A DNA stretch of 64,000 bases, from the NCBI GenBank assembly GCA_001784435.1, contig MFQZ01000009.1, positions 11,324 through 75,323 on the forward strand, given 5' to 3'. Made by a program: the position numbers and the translations under genes. The notes below the pieces were generated by a model. It was not told the origin of the DNA, searched no databases, and saw nothing but the letters and a program-made list of their open reading frames with translations. Shown here piece by piece: positions 6,467-61,106 of the stretch. Source of the DNA: Candidatus Magasanikbacteria bacterium RIFOXYC2_FULL_42_28. Its GTDB lineage: Bacteria > Patescibacteriota > Patescibacteriia > Magasanikbacterales > GWA2-37-8. Within the stretch, counting starts at the first letter, position 1; every line of letters begins with the position of its first letter.

Positions 6467-6580
6467 TGGTGGTTTCGCTCGCCACACAACTTTATCCCAG
6501 AAAGACACTCTTGGCCGTTCGGCCTAGGTTACGCTTTCTGAAATAAAGTTGCGCGTCGAGCTCTATGGTGCATAAAACAA

Positions 6581-7048
6581 ATGAATATGAATATAAACTT
6601 AATCTGTCTAGGCAAACCCAAAGAATCCTACTGGCGCGAGGCCGAGGCCGAATACTTAAAACGGCTTTCTTCAACGTGCAAAATCACCATTCGCGAGCTA
6701 AAAGAGAGGAGTTTTAGCGAAAAAGATGACCCGACCACGATTAAACTACAAGAAGCCGAACTAATTAAAAACGAACTAAAAAATACCAAAACCGGCCCAA
6801 TTTTGGTGCTTTCAGAAAATGGCCAACAATTTTCTTCAACAAAATTTGCCGAAATATTCAAAAATTCCGCTAATTTTACACTAATTATCGGTGGACCGCT
6901 GGGATTAGATGAATCAATTATTAAACTGGCGGACAAAGTAATTTCACTGTCTCCCCTAACTTTTACCCACCAAATGGCGCGAGTGGTGCTGTGGGAGCAG
7001 GTTTATCGGGCGCAGATGATAAATAGCGGGCGAAGATATCATTATTGA
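6581..7048 (+). CDS. rlmH: 23S rRNA (pseudouridine1915-N3)-methyltransferase, SPOUT family
   Basis: 155 aa. IIGGPLGLDESII...SLSPLTFTHQMARVVLWEQVYRA matches the RlmH/YbeA C-terminus. Confidence 0.8.
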   Translation: MNMNINLICLGKPKESYWREAEAEYLKRLSSTCKITIRELKERSFSEKDDPTTIKLQEAELIKNELKNTKTGPILVLSENGQQFSSTKFAEIFKNSANFTLIIGGPLGLDESIIKLADKVISLSPLTFTHQMARVVLWEQVYRAQMINSGRRYHY

Positions 7049-7055
7049 CGAGCGA

Positions 7056-7176
7056 AATGTCAAATTTCCAATTTCCAATGTCAAACCAAATCCAAATTTC
7101 AAATAACAAATACCGAATTTGACATTTTTACTTTGACATTGATTGGAAATTGGAAATTTGGATTTTGAAATTATCA
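7056..7176 (+). repeat. Long palindromic AATTTCCAATTTCCAATGTCAAA...TTTGACATTGGAAATTTGGATTTTGAAATT element (family 2)
   Basis: ~120 bp imperfect hairpin starting 8 nt after the rlmH stop. Four other copies occur at 12119, 19341, 43964 and 62441. Confidence 0.7.
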
Positions 7177-7179
7177 CAA

Positions 7180-7205
7180 GTTTGATTACACAAGCGTAAT
7201 CAAAC
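7180..7205. repeat. Family 3 palindrome GTTTGATTACACAAGCGTAATCAAAC
   Basis: Identical to 6441-6466. It brackets the rlmH and family 2 element segment. Confidence 0.6.
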
Positions 7206-7247
7206 TGTGGATAACTCTGGGTATAAGTCGCCTTTTCTGTGGATAAC
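7206..7247. promoter_or_regulatory. Two perfect DnaA boxes (TGTGGATAA, the reverse complement of TTATCCACA)
   Basis: Boxes at 7206-7214 and 7239-7247, 33 bp apart, followed by an AT-rich stretch at 7260-7380. Confidence 0.5.
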
Positions 7248-7395
7248 ACTTCGCTAATTTTAGCCAAAAAATATTTTCGGCAATAAAAAACTAAATTTGT
7301 ATACACAAGCGTATACAAATTTTTTGATATTTTAAACACTTTTAATCAATAATTTGGCTAATATATAACAAAAACTGCTCGCCTGCCCCACCCCC

Positions 7396-7424
7396 TTGAC
7401 AAAACTATAAATATGTGCTATAAT
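7396..7424 (+). promoter_or_regulatory. Consensus sigma70 promoter (TTGACA-17-TATAAT)
   Basis: TTGACA at 7396-7401, a 17-nt spacer, and TATAAT at 7419-7424. Confidence 0.6.
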
Positions 7425-7430
7425 ATCTTT

Positions 7431-7760
7431 GTAGTTCATTCTACAATTCAAGTTTCACTTCTGTGAAACACCCTCACGAAACTGCCATTTATGACAAGAA
7501 ATGGACTTATCACTGTAAAAACTTCAAAAAACAGCTAACAGTGATAATCCGCACTTCTTGCCTGGTATCCCCAATTTTACATTCGTCTGCGTTTTCCGCG
7601 ACAAATGTCCGGGGTAATACCTCTCAGGTGGTCGGAGGGTAACTCTGTCCGATGATTGACATTTTTCCCTAACGGGATTGATATCTCGTCGCGATGGTTT
7701 TACTAAAGGGCTAGAGCCTTAAAATTATTTTTATCGGGTCACTATGCCCTTTTTTTAATC
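7431..7760 (+). ncRNA. Long (~330 nt) structured 5' leader or ncRNA candidate upstream of the VIT-like transporter (riboswitch-like?)
   Basis: No ORF longer than 15 aa. It contains GC-rich paired segments (GTCCGGGGTAATACC...GGTCGGAGGGTAAC...GTCCGATG), a palindrome GTTTCACTTCTGTGAAAC, and ends in a hairpin plus T7 run (GCCCTTTTTTT at 7746-7757) just before the start codon. Confidence 0.25.
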
Positions 7761-18934: not shown

Positions 18935-19339
18935 ATGTTAACCGATCAATATCGTTTAAAAAAAGTGCGGGATTTTAATATGCTCATGGAGCGTGGACGC
19001 TGGGCAGGCGGGGCGCTTTTTACAGTTAAATGGCTTAAATTAGCGGACCCTGGCATCAGATTGCCAAAGGCAATCGGTGCAGGGCCAGAATTGAAAAAAT
19101 TTATAGAGCAATTGCGTTTTGCTTTTGTGGTGGGTTTGAAGGTGAGTAAAAAGGCGGTTGAGCGCAATCGCTTGAAACGTCAGATGCGGGAGGTTGTTAG
19201 ATTGATGATTAAGGATGGGCGAGTTAAAAGCGGGTTTTATGTGATGGTGGTAGCGAAGGGCGAGGCGCTGGGGAAAGAGTATGGTAAAATTGAGAAAGAA
19301 ATTGAGGGTTTATTAAAGAGGATCGGCGTGGCAAGTTAA
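18935..19339 (+). CDS. rnpA: Ribonuclease P protein component
   Basis: 134 aa, basic, located just after rpmH. The RNR-like motif KKAVERNRLKRQMRE is present. Confidence 0.75.
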   Translation: MLTDQYRLKKVRDFNMLMERGRWAGGALFTVKWLKLADPGIRLPKAIGAGPELKKFIEQLRFAFVVGLKVSKKAVERNRLKRQMREVVRLMIKDGRVKSGFYVMVVAKGEALGKEYGKIEKEIEGLLKRIGVAS

Positions 19340-19340
19340 T

Positions 19341-19452
19341 AATGTCAAATTTCCAATTTCCAATGTCAAATCAAATCCAAAGCTCAAATTACGAATTTGA
19401 CATTTTGATTTTGACATTGATTTGACATTGGAAATTTGGATTTTGAAATTAA
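19341..19452 (+). repeat. Family 2 long palindromic element
   Basis: AATGTCAAATTTCCAATTTCCAATGTCAAATCAAATCCAAAGCTCAAATTACGAATTTGACATTTTGATTTTGACATTGATTTGACATTGGAAATTTGGATTTTGAAATT. It starts 2 nt after the rnpA stop and ends 1 nt before the yidD ATG. Confidence 0.7.
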
Positions 19453-19453
19453 T

Positions 19454-19711
19454 ATGCTTGTAAAGAAAATATTGCTGATTCCGCGCGTGGTAGTTTTATT
19501 ATTTATTAGATTATATCAGAAAACAATATCTCCTGATCATGGCATTTTTAAAAATTTATTTCCACATGGGTATTGCCGGTTTTATCCTACCTGTTCTGAA
19601 TATGGTTATCAGGCGATAAAGAAAGGGGGGTTGGTGGTGGGTGGTTTAAAAACTATTTGGAGAATTTTGCGGTGTAATCCGTGGAATAAAGGCGGGGTGG
19701 ATTTGCCATAG
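19454..19711 (+). CDS. yidD: Membrane protein insertion efficiency factor YidD
   Basis: [39 protein letters not shown] is the YidD/haemolytic-domain signature. The ATG at 19454 is used because the track's start lies inside the repeat. Confidence 0.8.
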
Positions 19712-19821
19712 TTATAGTTGTCAAAATATCGCTTTAATGTTAAACTGAAAACAGTTTAATTTTTATTAAAAGCCCGCCCAGACACCCCGGGCTTGCCCGA
19801 GGTCGGGCTTATTTATCGGGT

Positions 19822-21069
19822 ATGAAAACTAAATTTTTCTTAGGATCTTTGGCAATTGTTATCTCGGCATTATTATGGAGTTTAGATGGCACCTTTTTAC
19901 GACCGGGGTTATTCTCTTTGCCGTCGCCATTGTTGGTATTTTTGGAACATACATTAGGATTTGTGGTGCTCGCGCCTTTTTTATTTATTTACCGTAGCCA
20001 ACTAAAAGAAATTAATAAAAAATCATGGGCTGCGATATTTTGGGTGGCGTTATTCGGGGGGGCGCTTGGCACCACTTTTTTTACCAAGGCGTTATTTGCT
20101 ACCGGGTTCGTCGATATCTCCGTGGTAATTTTATTACAAAAATTCCAACCGATTTTCGCGATAATTTTAGCGGCGATATTTTTGCGCGAACGGTTTCCGC
20201 GTGAGTTTTATGCTTATGCCGGCTTGGCAGTTGTGGCCGGATATTTTGTTACTTTTAAAGATCCGTTTATTGTGTCCGGTATTTGGAGCGCGCCCGCCCT
20301 GGCGGCGGTATTTTCGCTTTTGGCCGCGTTCGCGTGGGGTTCATCTACGGTGTTTGGTAAATATTCTTTGAAAAATTTAAATCACGGTCTGCTCGCGGCT
20401 TTGAGGTTTGGGTTAACGGTTTTGATTATGGTTTTCCCGGCGTTGTATTTTTATGGCACGGGAGTTTCGGCAGTGGCGGGCAAACAATGGTGGACACTCA
20501 TTACGATTGTATTCAGTTCCGGCGCGGTGGCGATGTTTTTGTATTATTGGGGATTAAAAAAAGTGCCGGCATCAGTTTCAACTTTGTGTGAATTAGCGTG
20601 GCCGGTGTCGGCAATTATTTTTGATTATTTTTTGAACGACAATGTTTTATCAACCACGCAAATTTTGGGCGCGTTTGTTTTAGTACTTGCGGCCTATCGC
20701 GCGACCGCGTTAAATCAGCCGATAACTTTTACCGGTAAAGTTTTGCCCGGGCAAGGCAAAGGCGAAGAGGTGGGCGCGAAGACCGCGAATTTAGATGTCG
20801 CGCTCGCGGCTAAATTACCGCCGGGTTTGTATGATTGTGTGGTAACAACCGAAGCCAAGGCGGTTTATAGTGGGTTACTGTATTATGGATATAATTCGTT
20901 GTCACAAAAAGATTGCTTGGAAGTTCATCTGTTAAATTTTTCCGGTGATTTGAAAGGGCAAGAAATTACCGTTACCACCAAAAGGTTTTTGCGCCTACCG
21001 AAAAAATTTAATTCGTTGGATGGGTTGAAGGCGAAGGTGGAGGAGGATTTGAAAAAGACCAAAGAGTAA
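19822..21069 (+). CDS. EamA/DMT-family transporter fused to a C-terminal riboflavin kinase domain
   Basis: The N-terminal ~290 aa contain 10 TM helices in EamA-like repeats. The C-terminus GKVLPGQGKGEEVGAKTANLDV...PPGLYDCVV...CLEVHLLNFSGDLKGQEITVTTKRFLRLPKKFNSLDGLKAKVEEDL matches the riboflavin-kinase motifs G.V..G.G.G...G.PTAN, P.GVY and EVHLLDF..DLYG..I.V.F...IR.E.KF. Confidence 0.6.
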   Translation: MKTKFFLGSLAIVISALLWSLDGTFLRPGLFSLPSPLLVFLEHTLGFVVLAPFLFIYRSQLKEINKKSWAAIFWVALFGGALGTTFFTKALFATGFVDISVVILLQKFQPIFAIILAAIFLRERFPREFYAYAGLAVVAGYFVTFKDPFIVSGIWSAPALAAVFSLLAAFAWGSSTVFGKYSLKNLNHGLLAALRFGLTVLIMVFPALYFYGTGVSAVAGKQWWTLITIVFSSGAVAMFLYYWGLKKVPASVSTLCELAWPVSAIIFDYFLNDNVLSTTQILGAFVLVLAAYRATALNQPITFTGKVLPGQGKGEEVGAKTANLDVALAAKLPPGLYDCVVTTEAKAVYSGLLYYGYNSLSQKDCLEVHLLNFSGDLKGQEITVTTKRFLRLPKKFNSLDGLKAKVEEDLKKTKE

Positions 21070-24428: not shown

Positions 24429-24512
24429 TTAATGTTTAAAACTATTTTTTAATTAATTTCTCGCTATTAATGGTCATTTAATTTGGCCGTGGCGGGAGGA
24501 AAGACAAAATAT

Positions 24513-25514
24513 ATGAGTAAGAAATTAATAGCGGTAGCGGTATTGGTAGCGGTAGCGATATTTGGCGGGTGGAGGTTATTGGGCGGCAATAAGCAGTCCA
24601 ATTCGCCGATCACCTCGTTGCCCAAGGTGAAAATCGCGATGGTAACTTTTCCCGGCTATGGCCCGCTTTATGTGGCCGAGGAAAAAGGTTTTTTTGGCGA
24701 TTTAGATGTTGAGTTGGTGCGGATAGAATCCATTGGTGATATTCGCGCGGCCATGCGCAGTGGTGCAGTTAATATGTACGCGGCCACTTATGACATTTTC
24801 CAATCAACCAAAGGGGTCGCCCCGGAAGGAATAGGTTTTGTGGTGATTGATGAGTCGCACGGCGCTGATGGCGTGGCCGTGGCCGGTGGAATTAATTCAG
24901 TCGCGGATTTGCGCGGTAAAAAAGTTGCCGCCGAACCCGGATTCCCGCCGTATTTAGTGTTGCAGTATTTACTAAATAAAGAAGGGATGACTTTGGCTGA
25001 TTTGGATTTTCAAGATATGCCGACGGTTGATGCCGGCAACGCGTTTGCGGCCGGGAAATTATCAGCTGCCGGTATTTATGAACCGGCCTTGTCTGCGAGT
25101 GTGGCAGCACATTCGGGCGCTAAGGTATTGGCGAGTAGCGCTGATGTTCCCGGTTTAATTCAGGATTTGCTTTTTGCCGATGAAAAGTTTACCAAAGAAA
25201 ATCCTCAGGTCTTAGAAAAGGTGGCTGACGGTTATTTTAAAGCGCTTGATTATATTAACACCAACCATGATGACGCGTATCAGATAATGGCGAAGGCCTT
25301 TGGGGTGAGCGTGCCGGAAATGGAAGATTTCAAAACCGGCGTTAGCTGGGTAAGCAAAGAAGAAAACAAAAAATTATTCAACCAAGCAAGCGATGTTAAT
25401 GTTTTTAAGACATACGACATTGTTTGTGAATTGTTGAAGAAAAATGGCGATGCCGATGTCTGTTTGCCGGCCGCGGCAAAATTAACAGAGGAAATTATTA
25501 ATAATATCAAGTAA
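24513..25514 (+). CDS. ABC transporter substrate-binding protein, NMT1/SsuA/ThiY-like
   Basis: A signal/TM segment is followed by KIAMVTFPGYGPLYVAEEKGFF. The ATG at 24513 follows GGAGG, whereas the track uses an upstream TTG. Confidence 0.65.
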   Translation: MSKKLIAVAVLVAVAIFGGWRLLGGNKQSNSPITSLPKVKIAMVTFPGYGPLYVAEEKGFFGDLDVELVRIESIGDIRAAMRSGAVNMYAATYDIFQSTKGVAPEGIGFVVIDESHGADGVAVAGGINSVADLRGKKVAAEPGFPPYLVLQYLLNKEGMTLADLDFQDMPTVDAGNAFAAGKLSAAGIYEPALSASVAAHSGAKVLASSADVPGLIQDLLFADEKFTKENPQVLEKVADGYFKALDYINTNHDDAYQIMAKAFGVSVPEMEDFKTGVSWVSKEENKKLFNQASDVNVFKTYDIVCELLKKNGDADVCLPAAAKLTEEIINNIK

Positions 25515-25515
25515 T

Positions 25516-26280
25516 ATGGACCTTGGCCCGATAAAAATTAGTAAGAAAAACTTACCTTTGATAGTGTCGCTATTATTTTTGTCGGGCCTATGGTTTTTCG
25601 TTACCGAAACTACTCGCATAGTTAATCCTTTATTTTTACCGTCGCCGGTAAAAGTGGCGACTGCCCTTAGCGGATTGATAACCAATGGTTTGAGCGCTGA
25701 TGTATTTGCCACTGTGGGCCGAGTCGCGGCGGCGTTTGTGCTGTCGGTGTCTTTGGCTTTGCCAGTCGCACTTTTGATGTCAGAATCAAAATTCTTTCAG
25801 CGCCTGTTTACTCCTTATCTGGATTTTATTCGCTATATCCCGGTGCCGGTTTTGATTCCTTTGGCAATACTTTTTTTTGGCATCGGTGAAACCGCCAAAA
25901 TTGTTCTACTTTTTGTTGGGACTTTTTTCCAAGTAGCGCTTCAATTTGAAGTTGATTTAGATGATGTTCCGGTGGATTATTTTGATTTGGCGCATTCGCT
26001 TAATTTTTCTTTTTGGCAACGTTTAAAAATGAAATTATTGGCCGCCGCTCCGGAAATGTACAATAATATGCGCATCTCGCTCGGATTAAGTTGGTCGTAT
26101 GTGGTAATAGCGGAGCTTGTGGCCGCACCCACCGGCATTGGGCATATGATCAAAGAGGCGCAAAGATTTTCACTAACCGCTGATGTTTATGTGGGTATAC
26201 TGTTGATGGGGCTGGTTGGTTTTTTGTCGGATTATATTTTTCGGAAAAGTTATTTTAAATTATTTCCTTACAAAAATTAG
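25516..26280 (+). CDS. ABC transporter permease (BPD-transporter fold, SsuC/TauC-like)
   Basis: 254 aa with 6 TM helices and the EAA-like loop region. Confidence 0.7.
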   Translation: MDLGPIKISKKNLPLIVSLLFLSGLWFFVTETTRIVNPLFLPSPVKVATALSGLITNGLSADVFATVGRVAAAFVLSVSLALPVALLMSESKFFQRLFTPYLDFIRYIPVPVLIPLAILFFGIGETAKIVLLFVGTFFQVALQFEVDLDDVPVDYFDLAHSLNFSFWQRLKMKLLAAAPEMYNNMRISLGLSWSYVVIAELVAAPTGIGHMIKEAQRFSLTADVYVGILLMGLVGFLSDYIFRKSYFKLFPYKN

Positions 26281-26282
26281 TT

Positions 26283-27854
26283 ATGAGCGGAATTAGTGTT
26301 CAAAAATTAAATAAAAATTTTGGAGCGAAAAAAGTGTTGGAAGACATTTATTTTGAAGTAGAAAATGGTGAAGTCGTCGCCATCTTAGGTCCGTCTGGTT
26401 GCGGTAAGACGACACTGCTCAAATGTATTTTGGGTTTGGAAAAATCGGACAGTGGAGAAATTTTTGTCGGTTCCACGCGACTGACCGAGTGGTTAAAAGA
26501 TAATCGCATCGCTTATGTTCCCCAAAAGTACGCCAATTTTAATTATTTGACTGTTGCTCAAAATATTTTGGCGGCTCTAAATGGACAAGAATTAAACCTG
26601 GATAGCCTGGTTGAAAGTAGTTTAAAAAATGTCGGATTGGATAAATTTAAAACATCATATCCCGGGCAGCTTTCGGGCGGGATGCAACAGCGGCTGGCTT
26701 TGGCGCGCGCGCTCGCCTCGGGTGCCGGTATTATCGCTTTTGATGAGCCGTTTAGTTCTTTGGATGTGGAGACGCGCCAGCAAATGCAGGAATTAATTTT
26801 AGAATCTCGTTCGGATAATAAGAAAACGATGTTGTTTGTAACGCACGATATTGAAGAAGCGATATTTTTAGCGCGCAAGATCGTGGTGATGGGGACGAAA
26901 CCCGGCGTAGTTAGAGAAATTATTGATGTGCCGTTTAATTATCCCCGCCCATCATCTTTGCGGTTTGATGAAGAGTTCCAAAAAATTCGCCGGGCGCTGT
27001 CATTTATCGTGCGCTCGGAAGGGATTAAGGGTAAACTTTCCGAAGGTGAGCCGATCGTTGGTCGCTCTCATAAAATCGGACTTTATTATTGGCCGGGCAA
27101 TAGCCCATTTTTTTACGCGCAAGAACGCGGTTGGTTTGAAAATGATTTATTACCGGTCGAGTTTATTTCTTTCAGCGATAATCGCCAGAAAATTGATTTT
27201 TGGAAGTCCGGCAAAATTGATATTTTAAATGTTACCATTGATACCGCGCTTAGATTAAAAAAGGAAATACCGGATACGGAAATTATTATGGGTCTTAATA
27301 TTTCTCGTGGTGGCGACGCGCTTATTAGCCGTGATCCGATAAGTTCGGTAAAGGAAATTAAAAATAAACGGGTGGCTTTGGAAAAAGATGAGATCAGCGA
27401 GTTTTTCTTGCGTTATGTCTTGTATAAAAATGGCATGAATTTGGAGGATGTGATAGTGGCGGATATGAAGGGAGATGAAATCGGCGCCGCTTTAATAAGC
27501 GGTCGGGTTGATGCGGCCGTTTTGTGGGAGCCGTGGCTTTCCAAAACATTGGAATTGTCGCGCGCGCATGTTGTCGCAACCAGCCGTGATTTTTCAGTTT
27601 TCGCGGATGTTTTAGTGGCGCGAAAAAGTTTCGCGGAAGAAAATAAAGAAGAGATTCAAAAAATAAAAATGATTTGGCAGAAATCCGTTGACGCTTATTA
27701 TTTAAACAAACAAGATTTTACGCGCGCAGTCGCGCCCGCCGTGGGGCTAAGTGCTCGGGATTTGGCCAGCCAGCTTGAGTTAATTGAATTTTTTGATGGT
27801 GGGACTAAGCGGGTACTGGAAATTGGCGGGGAGATTAAAGACATGATGAGATAA
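26283..27854 (+). CDS. ABC transporter ATP-binding protein fused to a C-terminal NMT1-like substrate-binding domain
   Basis: GPSGCGKTT, LSGGMQQRLALARAL and IIAFDEPFSSLD, followed by a ~270-aa domain (IGLYYWPGNSPFFYAQERGWF...) resembling the periplasmic SBP of the same family. Confidence 0.7.
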   Translation: MSGISVQKLNKNFGAKKVLEDIYFEVENGEVVAILGPSGCGKTTLLKCILGLEKSDSGEIFVGSTRLTEWLKDNRIAYVPQKYANFNYLTVAQNILAALNGQELNLDSLVESSLKNVGLDKFKTSYPGQLSGGMQQRLALARALASGAGIIAFDEPFSSLDVETRQQMQELILESRSDNKKTMLFVTHDIEEAIFLARKIVVMGTKPGVVREIIDVPFNYPRPSSLRFDEEFQKIRRALSFIVRSEGIKGKLSEGEPIVGRSHKIGLYYWPGNSPFFYAQERGWFENDLLPVEFISFSDNRQKIDFWKSGKIDILNVTIDTALRLKKEIPDTEIIMGLNISRGGDALISRDPISSVKEIKNKRVALEKDEISEFFLRYVLYKNGMNLEDVIVADMKGDEIGAALISGRVDAAVLWEPWLSKTLELSRAHVVATSRDFSVFADVLVARKSFAEENKEEIQKIKMIWQKSVDAYYLNKQDFTRAVAPAVGLSARDLASQLELIEFFDGGTKRVLEIGGEIKDMMR

Positions 27855-51427: not shown

Positions 51428-54400
51428 ATGTTTAGTCCGAAAAAAATATTTTTTACAATTTTGACAGCAGTGCTGGCGGTTGGTTTATCAACCGCCTCTT
51501 TAGTATTAGCCGAAACGCAAACCGGGGGGTTGACAGTGGGGGTTACTATTGGGAGTGACGCTGTTTGTGGAAATGGCGCGGTTGAAGGCGATGAGGCCTG
51601 TGATGCCGGCAGTAGTAACGGGCTTTGTTCCGCGACTTGTAGTACCAGTTGTACGGTTAAGGCCACGACCGATTGTGGTGGCGGTGGCGATACCGACAAT
51701 TCTCCGACAATTTCCAATGTAACCACTACTCTGATTACGGTTAACAGCGCAACGGTGAGCTGGAACGCGACTGATAACAACGGAATTTCCACCTCCACTT
51801 TTGTTTATGGAATTGATATCAATTATGGCAGTAGTGCGACAATATCAGGTTCCAATCCGTATAGCGTAAATTTATTCGGTTTATCTGCCAACACGGTTTA
51901 TTATTTTCAAATTTCCGTTACTGATACTGGCAGTCATACCGTTGAATCTACTGGCAGTTTTACGACTTTATCAACGGCGGTAGGAGATACCATCCCTCCT
52001 AATATTTTTAATGTTATTGTTTCCCCAATCGGCGTAACTATGGCGACAATTTCATTTGATACCAACGAGTTGACGACAGCGCAAATTAAATTTAGTTCCG
52101 ACTTTTCTTATGCCAGCAGTACGGCCTTGGACGCGGTTTTGGCTACCACACACACAATTTCAGTGCTGGGTTTATGGCCGGATACTACCTATCATTTTCA
52201 AATTATCGCCAATGATGAACCGAATAATACCACCACCACTTTGGATGCTACCTTTACTACTTTGCCGGCGCCGGCCGTGGCCGATGTTGGTCATTTTGAA
52301 TTATCACCGTCATTTGAAGCAATTACTTTAAGTTGGGATTTGCCTGATTCTCCGTATTACGACCATATTATATTAAATCGTCAAGTTACCGGCGATCCGG
52401 CCACATTGGTAGAGTTGCCGGTTGATCCATTGGATAGTTTATTTATCGATTATGGGATTGATTTTAATATCAATTATACCTATACGATTTATGTCGTAGA
52501 TATTTTTGACCAACAAAGCCAAGGGGTATCGGTAAATGGCGAAGTTTTAGCATTTGGTTTAGAGGATTGTGATAACGGTGATGTTGACGATGATGGCGAT
52601 GGTGATGCTGATTGTGGTGATTTAGACTCTTGTTTCTCCCACCCCCACTGTGTAATTGAGGAAGTGTGTCATGATGAAAATGGTGATGGCTTGGAAAATT
52701 GTGATGATCCGAGTTGCGCTGGCAATGCGGTATGTTTAGCATTACACGAAGATGAGATTTGCGGTAACTTGTTTAATGATAACGGCGATGATTTTGAAAG
52801 TGATTGCGAAGACCCTGACTGTGCCGGATTCCCCGACCCGCAATGTGTCCTTTTTGATGTCGTGGCTTGTTCGGACCAGCAAGACAACGATGGCGACGGC
52901 CAAATTGATTTTGGCAATGACACCGGTTGCGTGAGCGCTGGTGATAATGACGAAAGTGACGACACGGTGCCGAGTTTTTTACAGTTGAATGTTAATGATA
53001 TTAAATTTTTTGCCGGTAATCGTCAAATTCCTTTGGCGCCGGTTAATGAAGTGGTGAGCAGTTTGGCTGGTAGTAACTTTACTGTGGCGGTCGCGCCGGC
53101 AATTACTCCCCAGGCAGTTACCTTGGTTTTGGAAGGGGCCACTTATCAGTTTGGCTTTAATGCGGTGGATAATATTTATTATTCAGATTTTACTTTGCCA
53201 TTTGTTGGTGTGCATAGCGCTTATTTAAATATTGATTATGGCAATGGCCAACAGGATAGCGTATTGATTAAAATAAATTGTTTGCCTTGGGGGCAAGTGG
53301 AAAGTGGTGGTGAGCTAATTGCGGGCGTGGAAATGTTTTTGCTTGATACCAATAATGAAAAAATATATTTGGGTGAATACGGTCAAACTAATCCGGTTTT
53401 GACGAGCGCGAGCGGGTTATATGGCTGGTCGGTATTGCCTGGTCACTACCTCGTGCGCGCAAACAAGGAGGGATTTTATGAACGGACTGTTCAAATTTAT
53501 GAGGTAAAAAATAATTCCATTAACGCGAATATTGATTTAATTAAAATGCCGACTAATTGGTTAGGGGCCATAGACGCGGCGCGGGGGTTGGCTCTACAAG
53601 CGGTAAATGATGTTGCCGATAATCCGGCAGTGGAGCAAGTCGCCCAGCAGGTAGTGGCGCCGGTGGCAGTAGGGGTGTCAGCGGTGGGGACGATTTTGGT
53701 GGTGCCGTGGTGGAATTTGTTGGCGCTGTTACGTTTCTTATTTTTACAACCGCTTTTACTTATCGGTCGGGGCAAACGCAAACAGTGGGGCATGGTTTAT
53801 AATTCTTTGAGCAAAATGCCAATTGATTTGGCAATCGTGCGTTTGTTTGACGCGACCACCGGCAAATTGTTGCGTTCGCGTGTTACCGACGAACACGGTC
53901 GTTATGCGTTTATTATGCCACCAGGCAAATATCGTCTGCAAGTGGTAAAAATGAATATGACTTTTCCCTCCGTGTTGTTAGCCGGTATTACGCACGACGG
54001 CAATCGGCCGGATATTTATCATGGTGAAGAAATTATTGTTAATGAAAAAAATGTTTTGATTACGGCCAATGTCCCGCTTGATCCGTCCGGAGATGGTAAA
54101 ACGCCGAAACGGATTTTGCGTGAGCGGTTTTGGCGTAAAGTGCAGTCGGGCGTGTCCGGTTTGGGTTTGGTTTTCACTTTGGTCGCGTTATATATTTCAC
54201 CGCGTTGGTATATGTGGGTTTTGGCCGGGGCGCATATTGGTTTGATGTTGGTATTTAGACGTTTGGCAAAACCAAAAACTGCCAAGGGCTGGGGAATTGT
54301 TTCCGATACTGTCACGAGTAAACCGGTGGGGCGCACGGTGGCGCGTTTGTTTGATACCAAATTTAATAAATTGGTGGCCACCGAAGTTACTGATAAACAC

Positions 54401-54562
54401 GGGCGGTATAACTTTTTGGCCGGTGATAATAAGTATTATGTTACCTATGAGCATGAAAATTACGAGACGACTAAGACCGATGTACTGGATTTAACCGGTA
54501 AAGAAGAGGACGCGATCGCGACAGACGCGAAGTTAAAAAAGAAAGATTTATCCACAGAGTAA
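51428..54562 (+). CDS. Large surface protein with a myxo-type Cys-rich repeat, fibronectin-III-like domains, an Asp/Cys-rich module, CarbopepD_reg-like domains and C-terminal TM segments
   Basis: CGNGAVEGDEACDAGSSNGLCSATCSTSC matches CxxGxxExxExCDxG...C. Three segments resemble Fn3 (VSWNATDNNG.., ISFDTNELTT.., LSWDLPDSPY..). The Asp/Cys module is DCDNGDVDDDGDGDADCGDLDSC. Three DEHGRY/DKHGRY beta-sandwich units are present. Confidence 0.55.
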   Translation: MFSPKKIFFTILTAVLAVGLSTASLVLAETQTGGLTVGVTIGSDAVCGNGAVEGDEACDAGSSNGLCSATCSTSCTVKATTDCGGGGDTDNSPTISNVTTTLITVNSATVSWNATDNNGISTSTFVYGIDINYGSSATISGSNPYSVNLFGLSANTVYYFQISVTDTGSHTVESTGSFTTLSTAVGDTIPPNIFNVIVSPIGVTMATISFDTNELTTAQIKFSSDFSYASSTALDAVLATTHTISVLGLWPDTTYHFQIIANDEPNNTTTTLDATFTTLPAPAVADVGHFELSPSFEAITLSWDLPDSPYYDHIILNRQVTGDPATLVELPVDPLDSLFIDYGIDFNINYTYTIYVVDIFDQQSQGVSVNGEVLAFGLEDCDNGDVDDDGDGDADCGDLDSCFSHPHCVIEEVCHDENGDGLENCDDPSCAGNAVCLALHEDEICGNLFNDNGDDFESDCEDPDCAGFPDPQCVLFDVVACSDQQDNDGDGQIDFGNDTGCVSAGDNDESDDTVPSFLQLNVNDIKFFAGNRQIPLAPVNEVVSSLAGSNFTVAVAPAITPQAVTLVLEGATYQFGFNAVDNIYYSDFTLPFVGVHSAYLNIDYGNGQQDSVLIKINCLPWGQVESGGELIAGVEMFLLDTNNEKIYLGEYGQTNPVLTSASGLYGWSVLPGHYLVRANKEGFYERTVQIYEVKNNSINANIDLIKMPTNWLGAIDAARGLALQAVNDVADNPAVEQVAQQVVAPVAVGVSAVGTILVVPWWNLLALLRFLFLQPLLLIGRGKRKQWGMVYNSLSKMPIDLAIVRLFDATTGKLLRSRVTDEHGRYAFIMPPGKYRLQVVKMNMTFPSVLLAGITHDGNRPDIYHGEEIIVNEKNVLITANVPLDPSGDGKTPKRILRERFWRKVQSGVSGLGLVFTLVALYISPRWYMWVLAGAHIGLMLVFRRLAKPKTAKGWGIVSDTVTSKPVGRTVARLFDTKFNKLVATEVTDKHGRYNFLAGDNKYYVTYEHENYETTKTDVLDLTGKEEDAIATDAKLKKKDLSTE

Positions 54563-54602: not shown

Positions 54603-57600
54603 GTGATTATGGCAATTATAGGATTGAAAAATTTATTAAAATTATCAAGCCGAATTTTTGTAATATCCGCCATATTTTTGTCCGCAATTTTTAGTTTATG
54701 GTTATGGCAAAATAGCGCGGTCGCGGCGATCGCGCCATCAGTAATTACTTACCAAGGTAAAGTATTAGTAAGCGGTTCACCAGCGTCATCTACTTTATCA
54801 ATGAAGTTTGTTTTGTATGACTCTTTAACTGGTGGCACTGCGCTCTATACTGCTTCCGGCACTTTGCCAACCACGAGCACAATTAGTATTACTCCTTCCA
54901 GTGGTATATTTAGTGTTGATCTTGGTGGTAGTGGTACAAACACGATTGATCCAACTATTTTTCAAAATAACAGTAGTGTATATTTAGAAGTAACCATCGG
55001 CAGTCAAACCCTTACCCCCCGAAAACAAATCACTGCCGCTCCTTATGCTTTCAACGCTAAATATCTAGATGGTCTCGCCACTTCATCATTCGCCAAACTT
55101 GGATCCAATGAAACGGTTACCGGCACTTGGACCTTTTCGGCAACCACGACTATGGTCACGACGACGGTGAGTGGGAGGTTAGGTATTGGGACGACCACGC
55201 CAGATCAAGCGTTGACAGTGGTGGGGAGTATTAGTAATCCGGTGAATGGGAATTCTGGGATAACAGAAATTGCGACTCTATCAACAGGTAACGACCCGTT
55301 TGCGATATTTGTCTCTGGTCGGTATGCTTATGTGGCCAATTCTGCTTCTAGCACCATGACTATAATTGATATTTCTAAACCAACCGTGCCGGTGCAGGTA
55401 GCAACAGTTTCTGTCGGAAATTCACCGCGTTCCGTATTTGTTTCTGGTCGTTATGCGTATGTTGGAAATTATGGACATGGCACTATATCCATCGTGGACG
55501 TGTCTAATCCATTTTCTCCTGTTGTTGTTGCTACCCAGCAGGATTTGCCGGGTATCCCATCTTCTATTTTTATCTCCGGTCGGTATTTGTATACCACCTT
55601 ACAAGGCCAAGATATCTTGGCGGTTGTTGATATATCAGATCCGCTGACTCCGGTTTTGGCTGCGGCTGTCACTGTCGGTGATTACCCACAATCAGTTTTT
55701 GTCTCCGGTCGTTATGCTTATGTGGCGAATAGAGCATCCGGCACCATTTCTGTGGTTGACATATCTAATCCTTTGTCTCCAGTCCAAATTGCCACGACCT
55801 CTGTTGGTGTTTGGCCTAGTTCTATAGCTGTCTCTGGTCGTTATGCTTATGTGGCCCATGATTCTGATTTGTTTATTTCTGTAGTGGACGTGTCTAACCC
55901 CGCTATCCCAGTTCAAGTGGCTACCACCTCTGTCGGTTTTGTACAGTCGTCCGTATTTGTTTCCGGTCGTTATGCGTATTTTAGCACGGGTATTACTGCA
56001 AATGATTTAGGCAATCTTTCGGTTGTGGATATTTTAAATCCGTTGGTACCGGTTTTAGTGGCAACTACGCCGGTTGGAAAAAATCCACAATCAGTTTTTG
56101 TCTCCGGTCGTTATGCTTATGTGGCTAATGCGGGGCCTCTTGCGGGCAATGGTGGGGAAAATACTATTTCCATCATCGATCTCTCCGGCGCCGAATTTTC
56201 CACCCTAATCGCCCACTCCGCCGAAGTCGGCCAAATCCAATCGCGCAATGACATCATCGCTCAAGGCATAGTTGGCGCCAACAGTTTACAAATCGGCAGT
56301 GGTGGTATCCTCTCTAACGGGCCCATCAGTATCACCGCCACCGATACCTATTCTTACTTCGGCGGTGGCATTACCGCCACCGGCACAGTAACCACTACTA
56401 ATTTGGCGGTCATCGGCAATGCCACTTTTGGTGGCACATTGTCGCTGGGCAATACCGACATCACCGGCAATCTTACTGTCTCCGGCAACGCTACTACCAC
56501 TGGTAATCAAGTAATATCCGGCACACTTAATATTTCCGGCACTTCCACTCTCGTTACCACCACTGCCACTGCCTTAACTGTCACTGGCACATCAACTTTA
56601 ACAAATATTTCATCCACTGGCATTTCCAATCTAGGCACTTTAAACGTTTCTGGCAGTACCATTCTTTCTGGCACATTAAATGTAACCGGCACATCAACTT
56701 TGGCCACTACCACCATTTCCAAATTAACCATTAGCAGTCAAGGTATTATTATTTCCAGTAGCACTCCGGTCGTTACTTCTTCCACTTTGTATAATGTTGG
56801 TGACACCCTTTATTGGAACGGCAACGCCTTATCAACCTCTACTGGTAGCGGTTTGCCGTCTAGTATTGATGGCCAAATTTTATTCTCCGCTGGTTCTACT
56901 TGGACCGCGACTTCGGCGATTAGTATTGTGAGTACAACTGGTAATGTTGGTATCGGTACCACCAACCCAGGTACTTTGCTCACAGTCCACAACACCAATA
57001 TCGCTTCGGCCACTTCTTCCACTTTAAAACAATCATATTTATCAGTTGACCAAATGGCCTTGTCACAATTAGAAGGTGGAGCATATTTTGGCCGAACAAA
57101 AATAAAAAATAATAATTGGGTAGTTCAAGTAGCGGATAATTTTGTTTTGAGTGAGGCACCGTTATCTATGAAGGGTTCGGCTGGTTCGGCTGATGGGGAA
57201 ATTTTAGCAATAGTTTTAGATGGCAATCAAATCGGGCTGTTTTCCGGTTTTGATGCTGATGTTCAATTGGTGGCTAGCGTTCAAAATTGGGAGGATATCG
57301 CGATGTCCGTTGATGGTAAAATTATGTCGGCTGTGATTGATAATGGCGGGATTCATCGTTCCATTGATTATGGCGCCACTTGGGCGACCTCATCCGCTTT
57401 GACAAAAAATTGGACAGGTATTGCAATGTCGGCCGATGGTAAATATCAAACGGCCGTGGCCACCGGTGATAGCGTTTATATTTCTGCTGATTTTGGTGTT
57501 ACCTGGATCGCCAAAGACAGCAGTCGCGCTTGGACCGGTGTGGCCATGTCATCGGACGGTAAATTACAAATTGCCACTGTTTCAAGCACCGGCAATATTT

Positions 57601-60600
57601 ATCTTTCGGTTGATTATGGTAGTACTTGGGTTGCTAAAGCCAGTGCCAATGATTGGGACAGCGTGGTTATGTCGGCTGATGGGCGGGTAGTATTGGCCGG
57701 AGTGAATAGTGGCAATCTTTATCTTTCCACTAATTACGGCTATTCTTGGACAACCACTACCGCTCCGACCGGAGCTTGGAGCGCGGTCGGTATGGATGGC
57801 GATGGTAAATATCAAGTGGCCGGAATTTCGGGTGGGGCGTTATATATATCTGGTGATTATGGTTCCACTTGGGCCACTTCAACGTCAGCTACGAGTGGGG
57901 TTTGGTATGATATTGACGTTACGGCCGATGGCGCTACGGTGGTTGCAACGGACAATGTCGCGGGGTATTATATCAATCAGGCCGATCAGTTTAGTTTAAA
58001 AAATATTGCGATTGGCGCGACTACGGTTGCCAGCGGTTTGGCGCTTGATGTTACCGGTGTTGGTTCTTTTTCCGGTAATTTATCGGTTGGTGGCGGTTTA
58101 ACTGTTACCGGTAATGCTACCAGCACTAATTTTATTGCGACCGGCAATGTTGGAATTGGCACCACAACACTTACCGAAAGATTAAATGTTAAAGGTAATA
58201 TTAATTTGGTCGGCAATCTTAATTTAGCAACCGGTACGATAAAATATTCCGGCAGTAATTTATTGTCAATTACCGGTGGCGCGTCATCAGTTGCTTTAGG
58301 GGTAAATGCCGGGCACAGTGCAACCGGCACAGGTAATGTGTTTGTTGGCAGTGGAGCCGGCCAAAACAATGATTCTGGTTATAACAATACTTTTATTGGT
58401 CTTAATGCCGGGCAGACTAATACCTCATCGGCCGGGAACACCTTTATCGGGGCGACCGCTGGCGCTAGCAACACATCTGGTAGTAGTAATGTCTTTGTTG
58501 GTTCGGGGGCGGGGGGGCTTAACACTACCGGTCTGGGTAATTCGTTTTTTGGTGCTCAAGTGGCCAGTGCCAATACCAGCGGTAGCATTAATTCGTTTTT
58601 TGGAGCCTACGCCGGCATTGCTAATACTGAAGGCGGCAATAATTCGTTTTTTGGAGCATACGCCGGCACTGCCAACATTACCGGTAATTATAATGTATTT
58701 ATTGGCGAATACGCCGGATCAAGTGTTACTTCCGGGTATTCCAATACTTTTTTGGGCGCGCGCTCTGGTTATTTGAATATTATTGGGGCCGGTAATGTGT
58801 TTTTAGGCAATCAAGCCGGTTATAACGAGACAGGCTCTAATAAATTATATATTGCCAATTCCAACACAGATTCGCCTTTGATTTATGGTGATTTTAGCGC
58901 GAGTGCCTTGACGATAAATGGAAGTTTAACGGTGTCATCAACTAACACTTCTACTTTTAATAGTAGCATTAATATCACCAGCGGATGTTTCGCGGTCGGT
59001 GGAAATTGTTTGTCAGACGGCACTACTCTTAATACCACCGTGCTTAATGTTAGTAGTACTCTTACCACCAACAGCACCACAATTTTGGTTGGTAATAATT
59101 ATTTTAATTTTACCGGGGCAAATATTGGTGGAAATGATTATGCGTCTTTATCTATCGGTAATGGCGCATCTTCCACTAACGGAGCGGTAGCAATTTGGGG
59201 TGATACCACGGTTGGGCCAAGATTTATGTTAGTGGCGACCACATCCGCGCCTTCTGCCACTGTTGGCGATAGTCCGATTTTTGTCGTTGATATGACTAGT
59301 GGTTATGCGCGCGTGGATATTGGCAGTACCGGTAACGCCAAATCAGGATTGTTAAGATTATATGATAACGCCGGTGTGAATAAAATTTATTTGAGCGCCA
59401 GTTCTACCGACGGCGATTCGTTTGTGTTGGATAATTTTTTAGTGGGCGCGAATTCCGAGAGTATTGCCAACACTGGTTTTGTTTTAACTAATAACAACAG
59501 TTTATACACCGAAGGCGATTTGGGTGTTAATGGTAATATTTATACCGACGGGGCAATTTATATTTCTGGCACTTCTACTTTGGCTATTACCACTATTACC
59601 GCCTTAACTGTATCTGGAGATGTAACTCTATCTACCTCCACTATCTTTTTAAATAATGTTGGCAGCTTCACCAGCTCAACCGCTTTTATTTTTAATGTTG
59701 CTAATTTTTCTTTGTCTGCCGCTGATAGATATATTTTGTCTTTACGTTCTAATAACGCACCAGTATTTTCCGTCTCCGCCAATGGTGATGTTAATACAGT
59801 AGGTAGTTTGCATGCGTTTTCAGCCACTGTTGGGGCCGATGGTAATCCCGGTGACTTGGCCGAACGCGTTGATATTGCCGTTGATGATATCGCCGAAGCT
59901 GGCGATGTGGTCGTGGTTGATCCAAATAATATTGATACCTATCGCCGTAGTAGTGAGGCATATAGTCAATCCGTGGCTGGAGTAATTTCTACCGCTCCAA
60001 CCATCGTAGTTGGTGATGGTAAAACTGATTACACCGCTGTCATGGCTATGATTGGTCGCGTGCCAGTTAAAATTTCCAGTGAAAACGGCGCGATTAAGCG
60101 TGGTGATTTATTAGTGTCGGCATCGCTTCCCGGTTACGCGATGAAATATAATCCGGAAGATGATAATGGTTTGAAGATGGTGGGTATTGTGGGTGTGGCT
60201 TTGGATAGTTTTGCCGATGTCGGCGGAACCGGGAAAATTATGGCTTTAATCCGCACCGGTTGGGTCAATTCGCGTGGGCAAACTATCAATGATATTAAGA
60301 GTGACTTAGAAACTTTGGCGCAGAGTCAAGGTGTGAATATTAATTCTAATCCAAGTGATTTGACAGTGGAGCCAAGTGGCGGTAATTTGGTGTATAGCAG
60401 TGGTAATTTGAATTTACATGGTGGCAGTTTGTTGGGCGTAGCGGCGATTTCCGGCTTGAATGGTCGGTGGGAAATAAACGCTGATGGTTGGTTTATCACG
60501 CGCGTTGACACCACGAGTGGGCAAAAAGAAATGTATGGTTTGCAATCACCGGCCGCGGAATTTGTATTTTCCAGCTCATCACAGTTGATGAATGGTGAAG

Positions 60601-61106
60601 CGCGGGTTACTTTTGATGTTGCCGCGCAGGAAATTATTGATACGGACGCGATATTAAAAGTAAGTGTAACTTTAACATCGGGCGAAGCAATGGGTGTGTA
60701 TGTAACTGATAAAAATGCGACTGGTTTTACGGTAAAAGAAGTAGGGAATGGCACAAGTAACGCGACTTTTGATTGGGTGGTGGTGGTAAAGCAAAAAGAT
60801 CCCAATACTCCGGTAAGCGCGCCGGTTAGTGAACCAATAATAGACACGCCCGTTTCCTCTGGCGATTCTAGCGGTTCGTCAACCACCTTAACCACCGAAA
60901 CGCCACTGGTTATTGAATCAACCACAACCTCAACTACTGAGCCAGCGCCAGCACCGGTTGAAATCCTAACCCAGGAACCGACTGCCACAGTTGAGCCAAC
61001 ACCAGAAACAACGCCTGTGCCTGAACCAGCGCCGGTAGTTGTTGAGCCCACCCCTGAACCAGCGCCAGCACCGGTTGAAATTCCATCCTCGGAACCAGCA
61101 CCTTGA
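54603..61106 (+). CDS. Giant (2167 aa) cell-surface protein with LVIVD-like propeller repeats, BNR/Asp-box repeats, NxFxGxxAG 14-residue repeats and a Pro/Thr/Glu-rich tail
   Basis: After a signal/TM segment there are ~9 units of VFVSGRYAYVAN...ISVVDISNP (LVIVD-like). Six SxDxGxTW Asp-boxes follow (SIDYGATW, SADFGVTW, SVDYGSTW, STNYGYSW, SGDYGSTW). There are ~12 tandem repeats of the form NVFVGSGAG.., NTFIGLNAG.., NSFFGAYAG... The C-terminus has PAPAPVE/EPTPE repeats. Confidence 0.6.
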   Translation: MIMAIIGLKNLLKLSSRIFVISAIFLSAIFSLWLWQNSAVAAIAPSVITYQGKVLVSGSPASSTLSMKFVLYDSLTGGTALYTASGTLPTTSTISITPSSGIFSVDLGGSGTNTIDPTIFQNNSSVYLEVTIGSQTLTPRKQITAAPYAFNAKYLDGLATSSFAKLGSNETVTGTWTFSATTTMVTTTVSGRLGIGTTTPDQALTVVGSISNPVNGNSGITEIATLSTGNDPFAIFVSGRYAYVANSASSTMTIIDISKPTVPVQVATVSVGNSPRSVFVSGRYAYVGNYGHGTISIVDVSNPFSPVVVATQQDLPGIPSSIFISGRYLYTTLQGQDILAVVDISDPLTPVLAAAVTVGDYPQSVFVSGRYAYVANRASGTISVVDISNPLSPVQIATTSVGVWPSSIAVSGRYAYVAHDSDLFISVVDVSNPAIPVQVATTSVGFVQSSVFVSGRYAYFSTGITANDLGNLSVVDILNPLVPVLVATTPVGKNPQSVFVSGRYAYVANAGPLAGNGGENTISIIDLSGAEFSTLIAHSAEVGQIQSRNDIIAQGIVGANSLQIGSGGILSNGPISITATDTYSYFGGGITATGTVTTTNLAVIGNATFGGTLSLGNTDITGNLTVSGNATTTGNQVISGTLNISGTSTLVTTTATALTVTGTSTLTNISSTGISNLGTLNVSGSTILSGTLNVTGTSTLATTTISKLTISSQGIIISSSTPVVTSSTLYNVGDTLYWNGNALSTSTGSGLPSSIDGQILFSAGSTWTATSAISIVSTTGNVGIGTTNPGTLLTVHNTNIASATSSTLKQSYLSVDQMALSQLEGGAYFGRTKIKNNNWVVQVADNFVLSEAPLSMKGSAGSADGEILAIVLDGNQIGLFSGFDADVQLVASVQNWEDIAMSVDGKIMSAVIDNGGIHRSIDYGATWATSSALTKNWTGIAMSADGKYQTAVATGDSVYISADFGVTWIAKDSSRAWTGVAMSSDGKLQIATVSSTGNIYLSVDYGSTWVAKASANDWDSVVMSADGRVVLAGVNSGNLYLSTNYGYSWTTTTAPTGAWSAVGMDGDGKYQVAGISGGALYISGDYGSTWATSTSATSGVWYDIDVTADGATVVATDNVAGYYINQADQFSLKNIAIGATTVASGLALDVTGVGSFSGNLSVGGGLTVTGNATSTNFIATGNVGIGTTTLTERLNVKGNINLVGNLNLATGTIKYSGSNLLSITGGASSVALGVNAGHSATGTGNVFVGSGAGQNNDSGYNNTFIGLNAGQTNTSSAGNTFIGATAGASNTSGSSNVFVGSGAGGLNTTGLGNSFFGAQVASANTSGSINSFFGAYAGIANTEGGNNSFFGAYAGTANITGNYNVFIGEYAGSSVTSGYSNTFLGARSGYLNIIGAGNVFLGNQAGYNETGSNKLYIANSNTDSPLIYGDFSASALTINGSLTVSSTNTSTFNSSINITSGCFAVGGNCLSDGTTLNTTVLNVSSTLTTNSTTILVGNNYFNFTGANIGGNDYASLSIGNGASSTNGAVAIWGDTTVGPRFMLVATTSAPSATVGDSPIFVVDMTSGYARVDIGSTGNAKSGLLRLYDNAGVNKIYLSASSTDGDSFVLDNFLVGANSESIANTGFVLTNNNSLYTEGDLGVNGNIYTDGAIYISGTSTLAITTITALTVSGDVTLSTSTIFLNNVGSFTSSTAFIFNVANFSLSAADRYILSLRSNNAPVFSVSANGDVNTVGSLHAFSATVGADGNPGDLAERVDIAVDDIAEAGDVVVVDPNNIDTYRRSSEAYSQSVAGVISTAPTIVVGDGKTDYTAVMAMIGRVPVKISSENGAIKRGDLLVSASLPGYAMKYNPEDDNGLKMVGIVGVALDSFADVGGTGKIMALIRTGWVNSRGQTINDIKSDLETLAQSQGVNINSNPSDLTVEPSGGNLVYSSGNLNLHGGSLLGVAAISGLNGRWEINADGWFITRVDTTSGQKEMYGLQSPAAEFVFSSSSQLMNGEARVTFDVAAQEIIDTDAILKVSVTLTSGEAMGVYVTDKNATGFTVKEVGNGTSNATFDWVVVVKQKDPNTPVSAPVSEPIIDTPVSSGDSSGSSTTLTTETPLVIESTTTSTTEPAPAPVEILTQEPTATVEPTPETTPVPEPAPVVVEPTPEPAPAPVEIPSSEPAP

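Follow-up and report, generated by a model that had tools for sequence, protein, structure and literature searches.

A predicted riboflavin uptake permease fused to a riboflavin kinase in Candidatus Magasanikbacteria

A stretch of 64,000 nucleotides from Candidatus Magasanikbacteria bacterium RIFOXYC2_FULL_42_28 (contig MFQZ01000009.1, positions 11,324 to 75,323 of the forward strand; hereafter the window, whose own numbering is used throughout) contains a gene at 19822..21069 in which a membrane transporter of the EamA/drug-metabolite transporter (DMT) type is continued by a kinase domain. Judged from sequence and comparative genomics, this gene very probably encodes a riboflavin uptake permease carrying a cytoplasmic, active riboflavin kinase of the ATP-dependent type. 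Both domains are intact, the catalytic residues are conserved and the positive-inside rule places the C-terminus inside the cell. Besides, the transporter subfamily is linked recurrently in genomes to two unrelated riboflavin kinases and to riboswitches for flavin mononucleotide (FMN), and from this we infer substrate, transport direction, kinase activity and trapping of the vitamin. The features of the gene, all on the plus strand, are as follows.

19822..21069, plus strand: complete coding sequence of the fused transporter-kinase (open reading frame list; Pfam EamA and Flavokinase; database identity).
19822..20709, plus strand: EamA/DMT domain, residues 1-296, ten helices as two five-helix repeats (Pfam, AlphaFold, Foldseek).
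19876..19905, plus strand: signature WSLDGTFLRP of transmembrane helix (TM) 1, with W19, S20, D22, G23, R27 and P28 invariant in 30 aligned fused homologues.
20131..20151, plus strand: TM4 signature LLQKFQP, containing the Q-K-x-Q-P motif (alignment of 21 sequences).
20710..21066, plus strand: riboflavin kinase (flavokinase) domain, residues 297-415 (PF01687; PDB matches; Foldseek).
20779..20790, plus strand: KTAN, counterpart of the PTAN nucleotide/Mg site (alignment).
20824..20832, plus strand: G335-L-Y337, the G-x-Y motif of riboflavin kinases (G in 135/135 and Y in 133/135 fused homologues).
20920..20922, plus strand: E367, counterpart of the catalytic-base Glu, aligned with the Glu of human RFK 'METH' (135/135).

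The open reading frame comprises 415 amino acids plus stop, from the ATG at 19822 to the stop codon at 21067-21069, and is free of frameshifts and internal stop codons. Its product is 100% identical to the 'hypothetical protein' A3J93_05110 of Candidatus Magasanikbacteria bacterium RIFOXYC2_FULL_42. An earlier sequence-only reading of the window had described a ten-TM EamA transporter with a C-terminal riboflavin kinase domain of about 120 amino acids, and had named a kinase domain scoring below the threshold of riboflavin kinase models, or a frameshift separating two genes, as grounds to abandon this view. The architecture was borne out: PF00892 was matched with an E-value of 1.2e-31, ten helices were modeled and PF01687 covers residues 297-414, both families lying above their curated thresholds. 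The reading frame is single, and the junction between the domains has a constant length in 135 aligned homologues. Further, all kinase peptides quoted in that reading are present (KTAN at 20779-20790, GLY at 20824-20832, LEVH at 20917-20928 and RLPKKF at 20992-21009).

The kinase domain matched the Flavokinase profile PF01687 over positions 1-121 of 124, with an E-value of 2.7e-23; its score was 83 bits, or 87.3 when the domain was searched alone, where the curated cut-off is 19.6. Sequence matches of this part in the PDB include the flavin adenine dinucleotide (FAD) synthetase (FADS) of T. maritima and human RFK, and Foldseek retrieved the riboflavin kinases of human, S. pombe, C. ammoniagenes and T. 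maritima (among them 1q9s, 1n06 and 5a8a). NCBIfam models of RibF were matched only via their C-terminal kinase half (positions about 165-290) and scored well short of the equivalog cut-offs; the protein thus has no FMN adenylyltransferase half, and Pfam found no match to the corresponding domain PF06574 in the window protein. T321 (135/135 fused homologues) and N323 (133/135) align with the TAN of human RFK and T. maritima FADS, and R391 and D409 are each found in 135/135. The proline of PTAN is not retained: the window protein has Lys, and the first position is R in 75, K in 25 and P in 16 of the 135 homologues. On the sequence evidence, we regard this replacement as a deviation in the motif rather than as a failure of the PF01687 family model.

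The membrane domain reached 110.2 bits with PF00892 (cut-off 28.2), distributed over two stretches corresponding to the repeats. In the AlphaFold model (pLDDT 80.8, pTM 0.73), ten long helices are followed by a beta-barrel and a C-terminal helix, with a linker of only about five residues between helix 10 (278-296) and the first kinase strand (302-306). Foldseek matched the membrane part to YddG (5i20, target-normalised TM-score 0.73) and LicB (7paf, 0.81), and further to the triose-phosphate translocator (TPT) and to SLC35-type nucleotide and nucleotide-sugar carriers. Of the loop Lys and Arg residues, 13 lie on the predicted cytoplasmic side and 2 on the opposite side, which argues for an N-in/C-in topology and thus for a kinase located in the cytoplasm, where ATP is available.

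In a representative library clustered at 50% identity, 118 representatives were found at E<=1e-30 and 5,765 at E<=1e-3; the transporter part is consequently a distinct subfamily. Most aligned members carry the signatures W-x-x-D-G (TM1), L-E-H (TM2), Q-K-x-Q-P (TM4) and E-L-x-x-P (TM9). The TM1 motif, as W-x-x-D-G/S, is also present in most of the unfused and archaeal relatives aligned, and Q-K-x-Q-P occurs in 19/21 aligned sequences, archaeal and Marinimicrobia relatives among them. The subfamily extends over Patescibacteria, DPANN archaea, Marinimicrobia and further groups.

The fusion itself is widely conserved. Each of the best 120 among 742 homologue clusters combines the two Pfam families, with identities of 60-88%; where these clusters have a name, it is 'EamA family transporter', 'DMT permease' or 'hypothetical'. 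The GTDB species genomes yielded 36 fused loci from Magasanikbacteria, Nomurabacteria, Paceibacterota and other Patescibacteria, and the best 150 proteins of the 50%-identity library include 21 fused ones (down to 32% identity) and 126 consisting of the transporter only (about 300 amino acids). The membrane domain of one fused protein, P0126, is closest to unfused transporters of Microgenomates (55-60% identity), so fusion or fission has probably happened more than once. When the neighbors of 38 loci (36 of them fused) were clustered, tRNA synthetases, an aminopeptidase, DnaB and sugar or phosphoribosyl pyrophosphate (PRPP) kinases recurred; no flavin-related gene was among these recurrent neighbors, and the neighborhood is not conserved.

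Two side observations concern the distribution of the subfamily. A number of TPA metagenome bins (L009, L013, L015, L019, L029, L030, L035, L036, L041-L043 and L045) are titled 'uncultured Gammaproteobacteria', 'Saccharibacteria' or 'Pseudomonadales' and carry the fused gene, with a split gene pair in L045. For most of their fused proteins, identity to the Magasanikbacteria and Nomurabacteria counterparts is 54-66% (39% in L043, 50% in L045), and these taxonomic labels are probably wrong. In addition, protein P0186 of the representative library (574 amino acids) combines the transporter subfamily with a C-terminal HAD-family hydrolase (PF12710, E-value 7e-15) and has no kinase. Since HAD domains act as FMN hydrolases in plants, P0186 may be another flavin-related fusion.

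The assignment of riboflavin as the likely substrate is strongly supported, at the level of sequence and gene context, by five independent lines: the fusion to PF01687, a fusion to PF01982, operons in DPANN archaea, operons in Microgenomates and FMN riboswitches. In four proteins (P0144 and P0274-P0276, mutual identity 47-49%), the same transporter subfamily is fused to PF01982, the CTP-dependent riboflavin kinase of archaea, whose fold is unrelated to PF01687. The membrane part of P0144 is 40% identical to the window protein and scored 247 bits against a hidden Markov model of the fused bacterial transporters; its kinase part matched PF01982 with an E-value of 3.3e-29, as well as the solved RbkR/RibK of T. 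acidophilum (3cta/5trd, E-value 1.4e-17) and MJ0056. Its locus is archaeal, encoding a proteasome alpha subunit, SBDS, Rpp14 and Rrp4, and a second locus with a PF01982 fusion has another gene context.

In DPANN archaea, an unfused transporter directly follows or overlaps a gene combining a helix-turn-helix (HTH) domain with PF01982, i.e., with the architecture of RbkR, which is both a riboflavin kinase and a regulator of riboflavin synthesis and uptake genes (PMC5397151). This adjacency was seen in two Aenigmatarchaeota-type contigs, two Woesearchaeota and one further archaeon, in at least three different neighborhoods. In Microgenomates, the gene of an unfused transporter (301-302 amino acids) overlaps at its 3' end with a separate gene that encodes just a PF01687 kinase of 123-130 amino acids; such split pairs, in the same order as in the fusion, are present in a Roizmanbacteria-type genome (many contigs) and in a Gottesmanbacteria genome. 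In L045, the stand-alone PF01687 kinase lies 110 nt upstream of the unfused transporter. As a side observation, the Roizmanbacteria-type locus L091 has a second EamA gene (6526-7446, minus strand, 306 amino acids) about 1.2 kb downstream of its riboswitch-transporter-kinase operon.

FMN riboswitches were searched with the Rfam model RF00050 (gathering score 66.2). Directly upstream of four relatives, fused or split, the model scored above this threshold: L013 with 87.9 bits, L093 with 76.9 bits, L091 with 73.1 bits and L094 with 68.2 bits. The gene in L013 is fused, its product is 65% identical to the window protein, and its upstream region shows a perfect TTGACA-16-TATAAT promoter, the aptamer and a terminator hairpin, followed by the ATG. 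A degenerate copy in L037 stayed below the threshold (56.2 bits), and no riboswitch was found in the five scanned loci of free-living bacterial relatives (L001, L003-L006). A regular-expression screen for the FMN element flagged L013 and L037, both of them real, and also L031, which was rejected as a full riboswitch, as only a 3' remnant is found there. From 131-154 onward, 5' of the fused gene, L031 contains the 3' riboswitch core (TATAGTCCGGATGAAAGAAGAA) and then an ACCC…GGGT terminator-like hairpin, the 5' half being missing; it looks like a decayed riboswitch, fitting a loss of FMN control in most Parcubacteria-type loci. An upstream FMN riboswitch is the criterion, employed by Vitreschak 2002 and Gutierrez-Preciado 2015, by which RibU, RibM, RibN, ImpX, RibXY, RibZ and RibV were predicted as riboflavin transporters, RibU, RibM, RibN, ImpX and others being later confirmed (PMC4418817). 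The same element marks the present subfamily, by way of orthologues and not of the window copy. The proposal of the sequence-only reading that riboflavin import is coupled to FMN formation has thus gained strong support from comparative genomics.

In the mechanism we propose, riboflavin supplied by a host cell or by the surroundings would enter via the ten-helix carrier, which would equilibrate it across the membrane. The kinase, tethered just past the last helix, would phosphorylate riboflavin to FMN at the inner face. FMN is charged (anionic) and is not expected to exit via the carrier, so the vitamin would be trapped, making uptake ATP-driven in effect, and the retained FMN would feed flavoproteins. 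Where a riboswitch is present, FMN would switch the gene off, and the archaeal versions would achieve the same trapping with CTP. A stronger form of coupling, in which the kinase docks on the cytoplasmic exit of the carrier and phosphorylation is mechanically coupled to translocation, would amount to genuine group translocation, with a vitamin handled as sugars are by the phosphotransferase system; we consider this doubtful. If it were true, it would have evolved independently with an ATP-type kinase in bacteria and a CTP-type kinase in archaea, and the protein would be the sole entry of flavin into Parcubacteria, which would then need an unrecognized FAD synthetase or an import of FAD.

Parcubacteria have been reported to have neither riboflavin synthesis nor ribK/ribL/ribF, a putative riboflavin transporter or an FMN riboswitch (Nelson and Stegen, 2015; PMC4508563), although they retain the FAD-dependent enzymes MurB and TrxB (PMC4508563). 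Neither the window nor 87 related loci yielded an FMN adenylyltransferase, a rib gene or a second kinase. Pfam analysis of 40 further open reading frames of the window detected neither FAD_syn nor a rib gene, and no flavoprotein was evident; phmmer probes made from E. coli RibF (residues 1-185), RibD and the lumazine synthase RibE matched no open reading frame of the 87 loci. The sequence-only reading had proposed checking the genome for missing rib genes and for an FAD synthetase: within the 64-kb window the former are indeed missing, and the latter was sought and not found.

Several of these results weigh against a riboflavin uptake permease with an active kinase. Without an FMN adenylyltransferase in the window or the 87 loci, the route to FAD is incomplete. 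The window copy has no RF00050 match, either at the gathering score or at E<=1 in 19300-19900, and only 1/33 of the scanned fused Parcubacteria-type loci has one at the gathering score. Lys or Arg stands in place of the PTAN proline in most members, and the R-x-E-x-K-F motif has Pro instead of its Glu, so kinetics or nucleotide preference could differ. Since many EamA proteins are exporters, the direction of transport follows only from context. Finally, unfused relatives in Marinimicrobia (about 40 loci), in a Melioribacteraceae genome and on a 4.7-Mb bacterial contig have no flavin-related neighbors.

Some of these points would also fit other explanations. As specificity is not readable from the sequence and both PTAN and R-x-E-x-K-F differ from canonical kinases, the carrier might import a riboflavin analogue or precursor (deazaflavin, roseoflavin-like or lumichrome-type), with the kinase phosphorylating that compound. 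However, FMN-sensing riboswitches control four members, two different bona fide riboflavin kinase families were recruited, and the RbkR-like neighbors belong to a regulator family controlling riboflavin genes (PMC5397151), so we judge this improbable. The replaced first residue of PTAN might also be taken as a sign that the kinase-like domain has no catalytic role and instead senses a flavin or nucleotide to gate a transporter of another metabolite, and a regulatory use of riboflavin kinase folds is known from RbkR (PMC5397151). Yet the catalytic Thr and Glu are retained in 135/135 and the Asn in 133/135 homologues, the Microgenomates kinase is a separate protein of 123-130 amino acids in the same operon, which fits an enzyme better than a gating domain, and the literature reports no other riboflavin kinase in these lineages (PMC4508563). 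A mere sensor is, therefore, quite improbable.

Export of flavins (riboflavin or FMN), e.g., for extracellular electron transfer or cross-feeding, would agree with the many exporters among EamA proteins, with YddG, the closest solved fold and itself an exporter, and with weak NCBIfam matches of the window protein to exporter families. On the other hand, organisms reported to be without riboflavin biosynthesis have nothing to export (PMC4508563), control by FMN riboswitches is as in known riboflavin importers (PMC4418817), and attaching a kinase to a carrier that exports the kinase's substrate would serve no purpose; the chance that the protein exports flavins appears very small. That the fusion is an assembly or gene-calling artefact joining two separate genes is practically negligible. 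Split, overlapping versions do exist in Microgenomates, but the window gene is read in a single frame with no interruption, and the same architecture, with its constant junction, is kept in over 100 Patescibacteria protein clusters of independent sampling and origin as well as in the 36 GTDB genomes, which argues that the fusion is no artefact.

Pnu-type carriers (PnuX/RibM with RibF, PnuC with NadR) work by facilitated diffusion, which becomes directional through phosphorylation of the vitamin by a cytoplasmic kinase. The system predicted here resembles them as a carrier without an energy source of its own that would be made directional by kinase trapping. In contrast, the Pnu fold is different and its kinase separate, whereas here a DMT carrier has its kinase attached covalently or translationally coupled in an operon. 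With RibF, the window protein shares its C-terminal kinase part by homology (TIGR00083 positions 165-286; PDB 1mrz and 5a8a), but it has a transporter as fusion partner in place of the adenylyltransferase half. Archaeal relatives have RbkR/RibK, a CTP-dependent kinase with or without HTH domain, fused to or adjoining the same transporter subfamily; this kinase is not homologous to that of the window. The study of RbkR regulons lists RibU and the major facilitator superfamily (MFS) protein RibT as the only archaeal riboflavin transporters, and no DMT protein (PMC5397151).

The known riboflavin importer of the EamA type is RibN of Rhizobium leguminosarum, Ochrobactrum and Vibrio cholerae, cited as an EamA-domain protein in PMC10557607. 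At the level of the shared Pfam family, RibN and the window protein are alike as EamA-domain membrane proteins and, predicted in the present case, as secondary carriers for riboflavin; an NCBIfam scan of the window protein gave no match to a model named RibN. RibN stands alone without a kinase, is under an FMN riboswitch in some species and has been reported only in Proteobacteria (PMC4418817), whereas the present subfamily occurs in the patescibacterial, archaeal and other groups named above, with a kinase attached in its fused members. None of ImpX, RibU, RibZ, RibV, RfnT, RibXY and RfuABCD is described as fused to a kinase (PMC4418817, where neither 'fused' nor 'fusion' occurs), and in the literature searched we found no description of a transporter-riboflavin kinase fusion. 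Hence, riboflavin uptake as a function and trapping by phosphorylation are already known, while the riboflavin assignment of this subfamily, the covalent architecture and the convergent archaeal form appear to be undescribed.

For Parcubacteria, the gene is a candidate for two steps reported missing, namely uptake of riboflavin and formation of FMN, and the puzzle that is left would narrow to the adenylylation of FMN to FAD. FMN riboswitches do exist in this radiation, contrary to the earlier report. Further, the results would define a previously unassigned subfamily of riboflavin transporters in Patescibacteria, DPANN archaea and some free-living phyla, and would provide a clean example of convergent fusion, in which one transporter is joined to two unrelated kinases for the same vitamin. 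Riboflavin may also be suggested as a supplement in attempts to cultivate these organisms.

The window also encodes dnaN, dnaA, rpmH, rnpA, yidD, PBP1, polA, trigger factor and an H+-pyrophosphatase, and the gene set around the fusion fits a small Patescibacteria genome near the replication origin. The order dnaA-rpmH-rnpA-yidD was rejected as a functional clue: only the closest relative, L008, has it too, L040 has part of it, and it therefore carries no functional signal. Between yidD and the fused gene lies a further feature.

19712..19821, plus strand: upstream spacer of 110 nt after yidD, with a weak promoter-like site at 19718-19746 and a GC hairpin at 19795-19808.

This GC-rich hairpin (GCCCGAGGTCGGGC) has a T-rich tail and lies 14 nt 5' of the start codon of the fused gene; it could be the terminator of yidD or a small attenuator, and it is no FMN element. 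Between rnpA (end at 19339) and yidD (start at 19436), a long imperfect inverted repeat is located within 19329-19457. Its arms (19337-19381 and 19410-19454) are 45 nt each and 82% complementary, it is composed of recurring ATTTGACAT and AATGTCAAAT words, and it gave weak matches to many microRNA-hairpin models on both strands.

Elsewhere in the window, an ABC transport operon at 24483-27854 encodes an NMT1/THI5-like binding protein, a permease and a protein of 523 amino acids, the latter being an unusual fusion of an ABC ATPase with a second NMT1/THI5-like binding domain; the operon is possibly another salvage system, for a vitamin or a pyrimidine. Finally, two very large predicted surface proteins adjoin each other: an LVIVD-repeat protein of 2167 amino acids (54603-61106) and a protein of 1044 amino acids (51428-54562) with fn3, CarboxypepD_reg and SdrD-like domains. 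Both may serve in attachment to other cells, in keeping with what is expected of an episymbiont.

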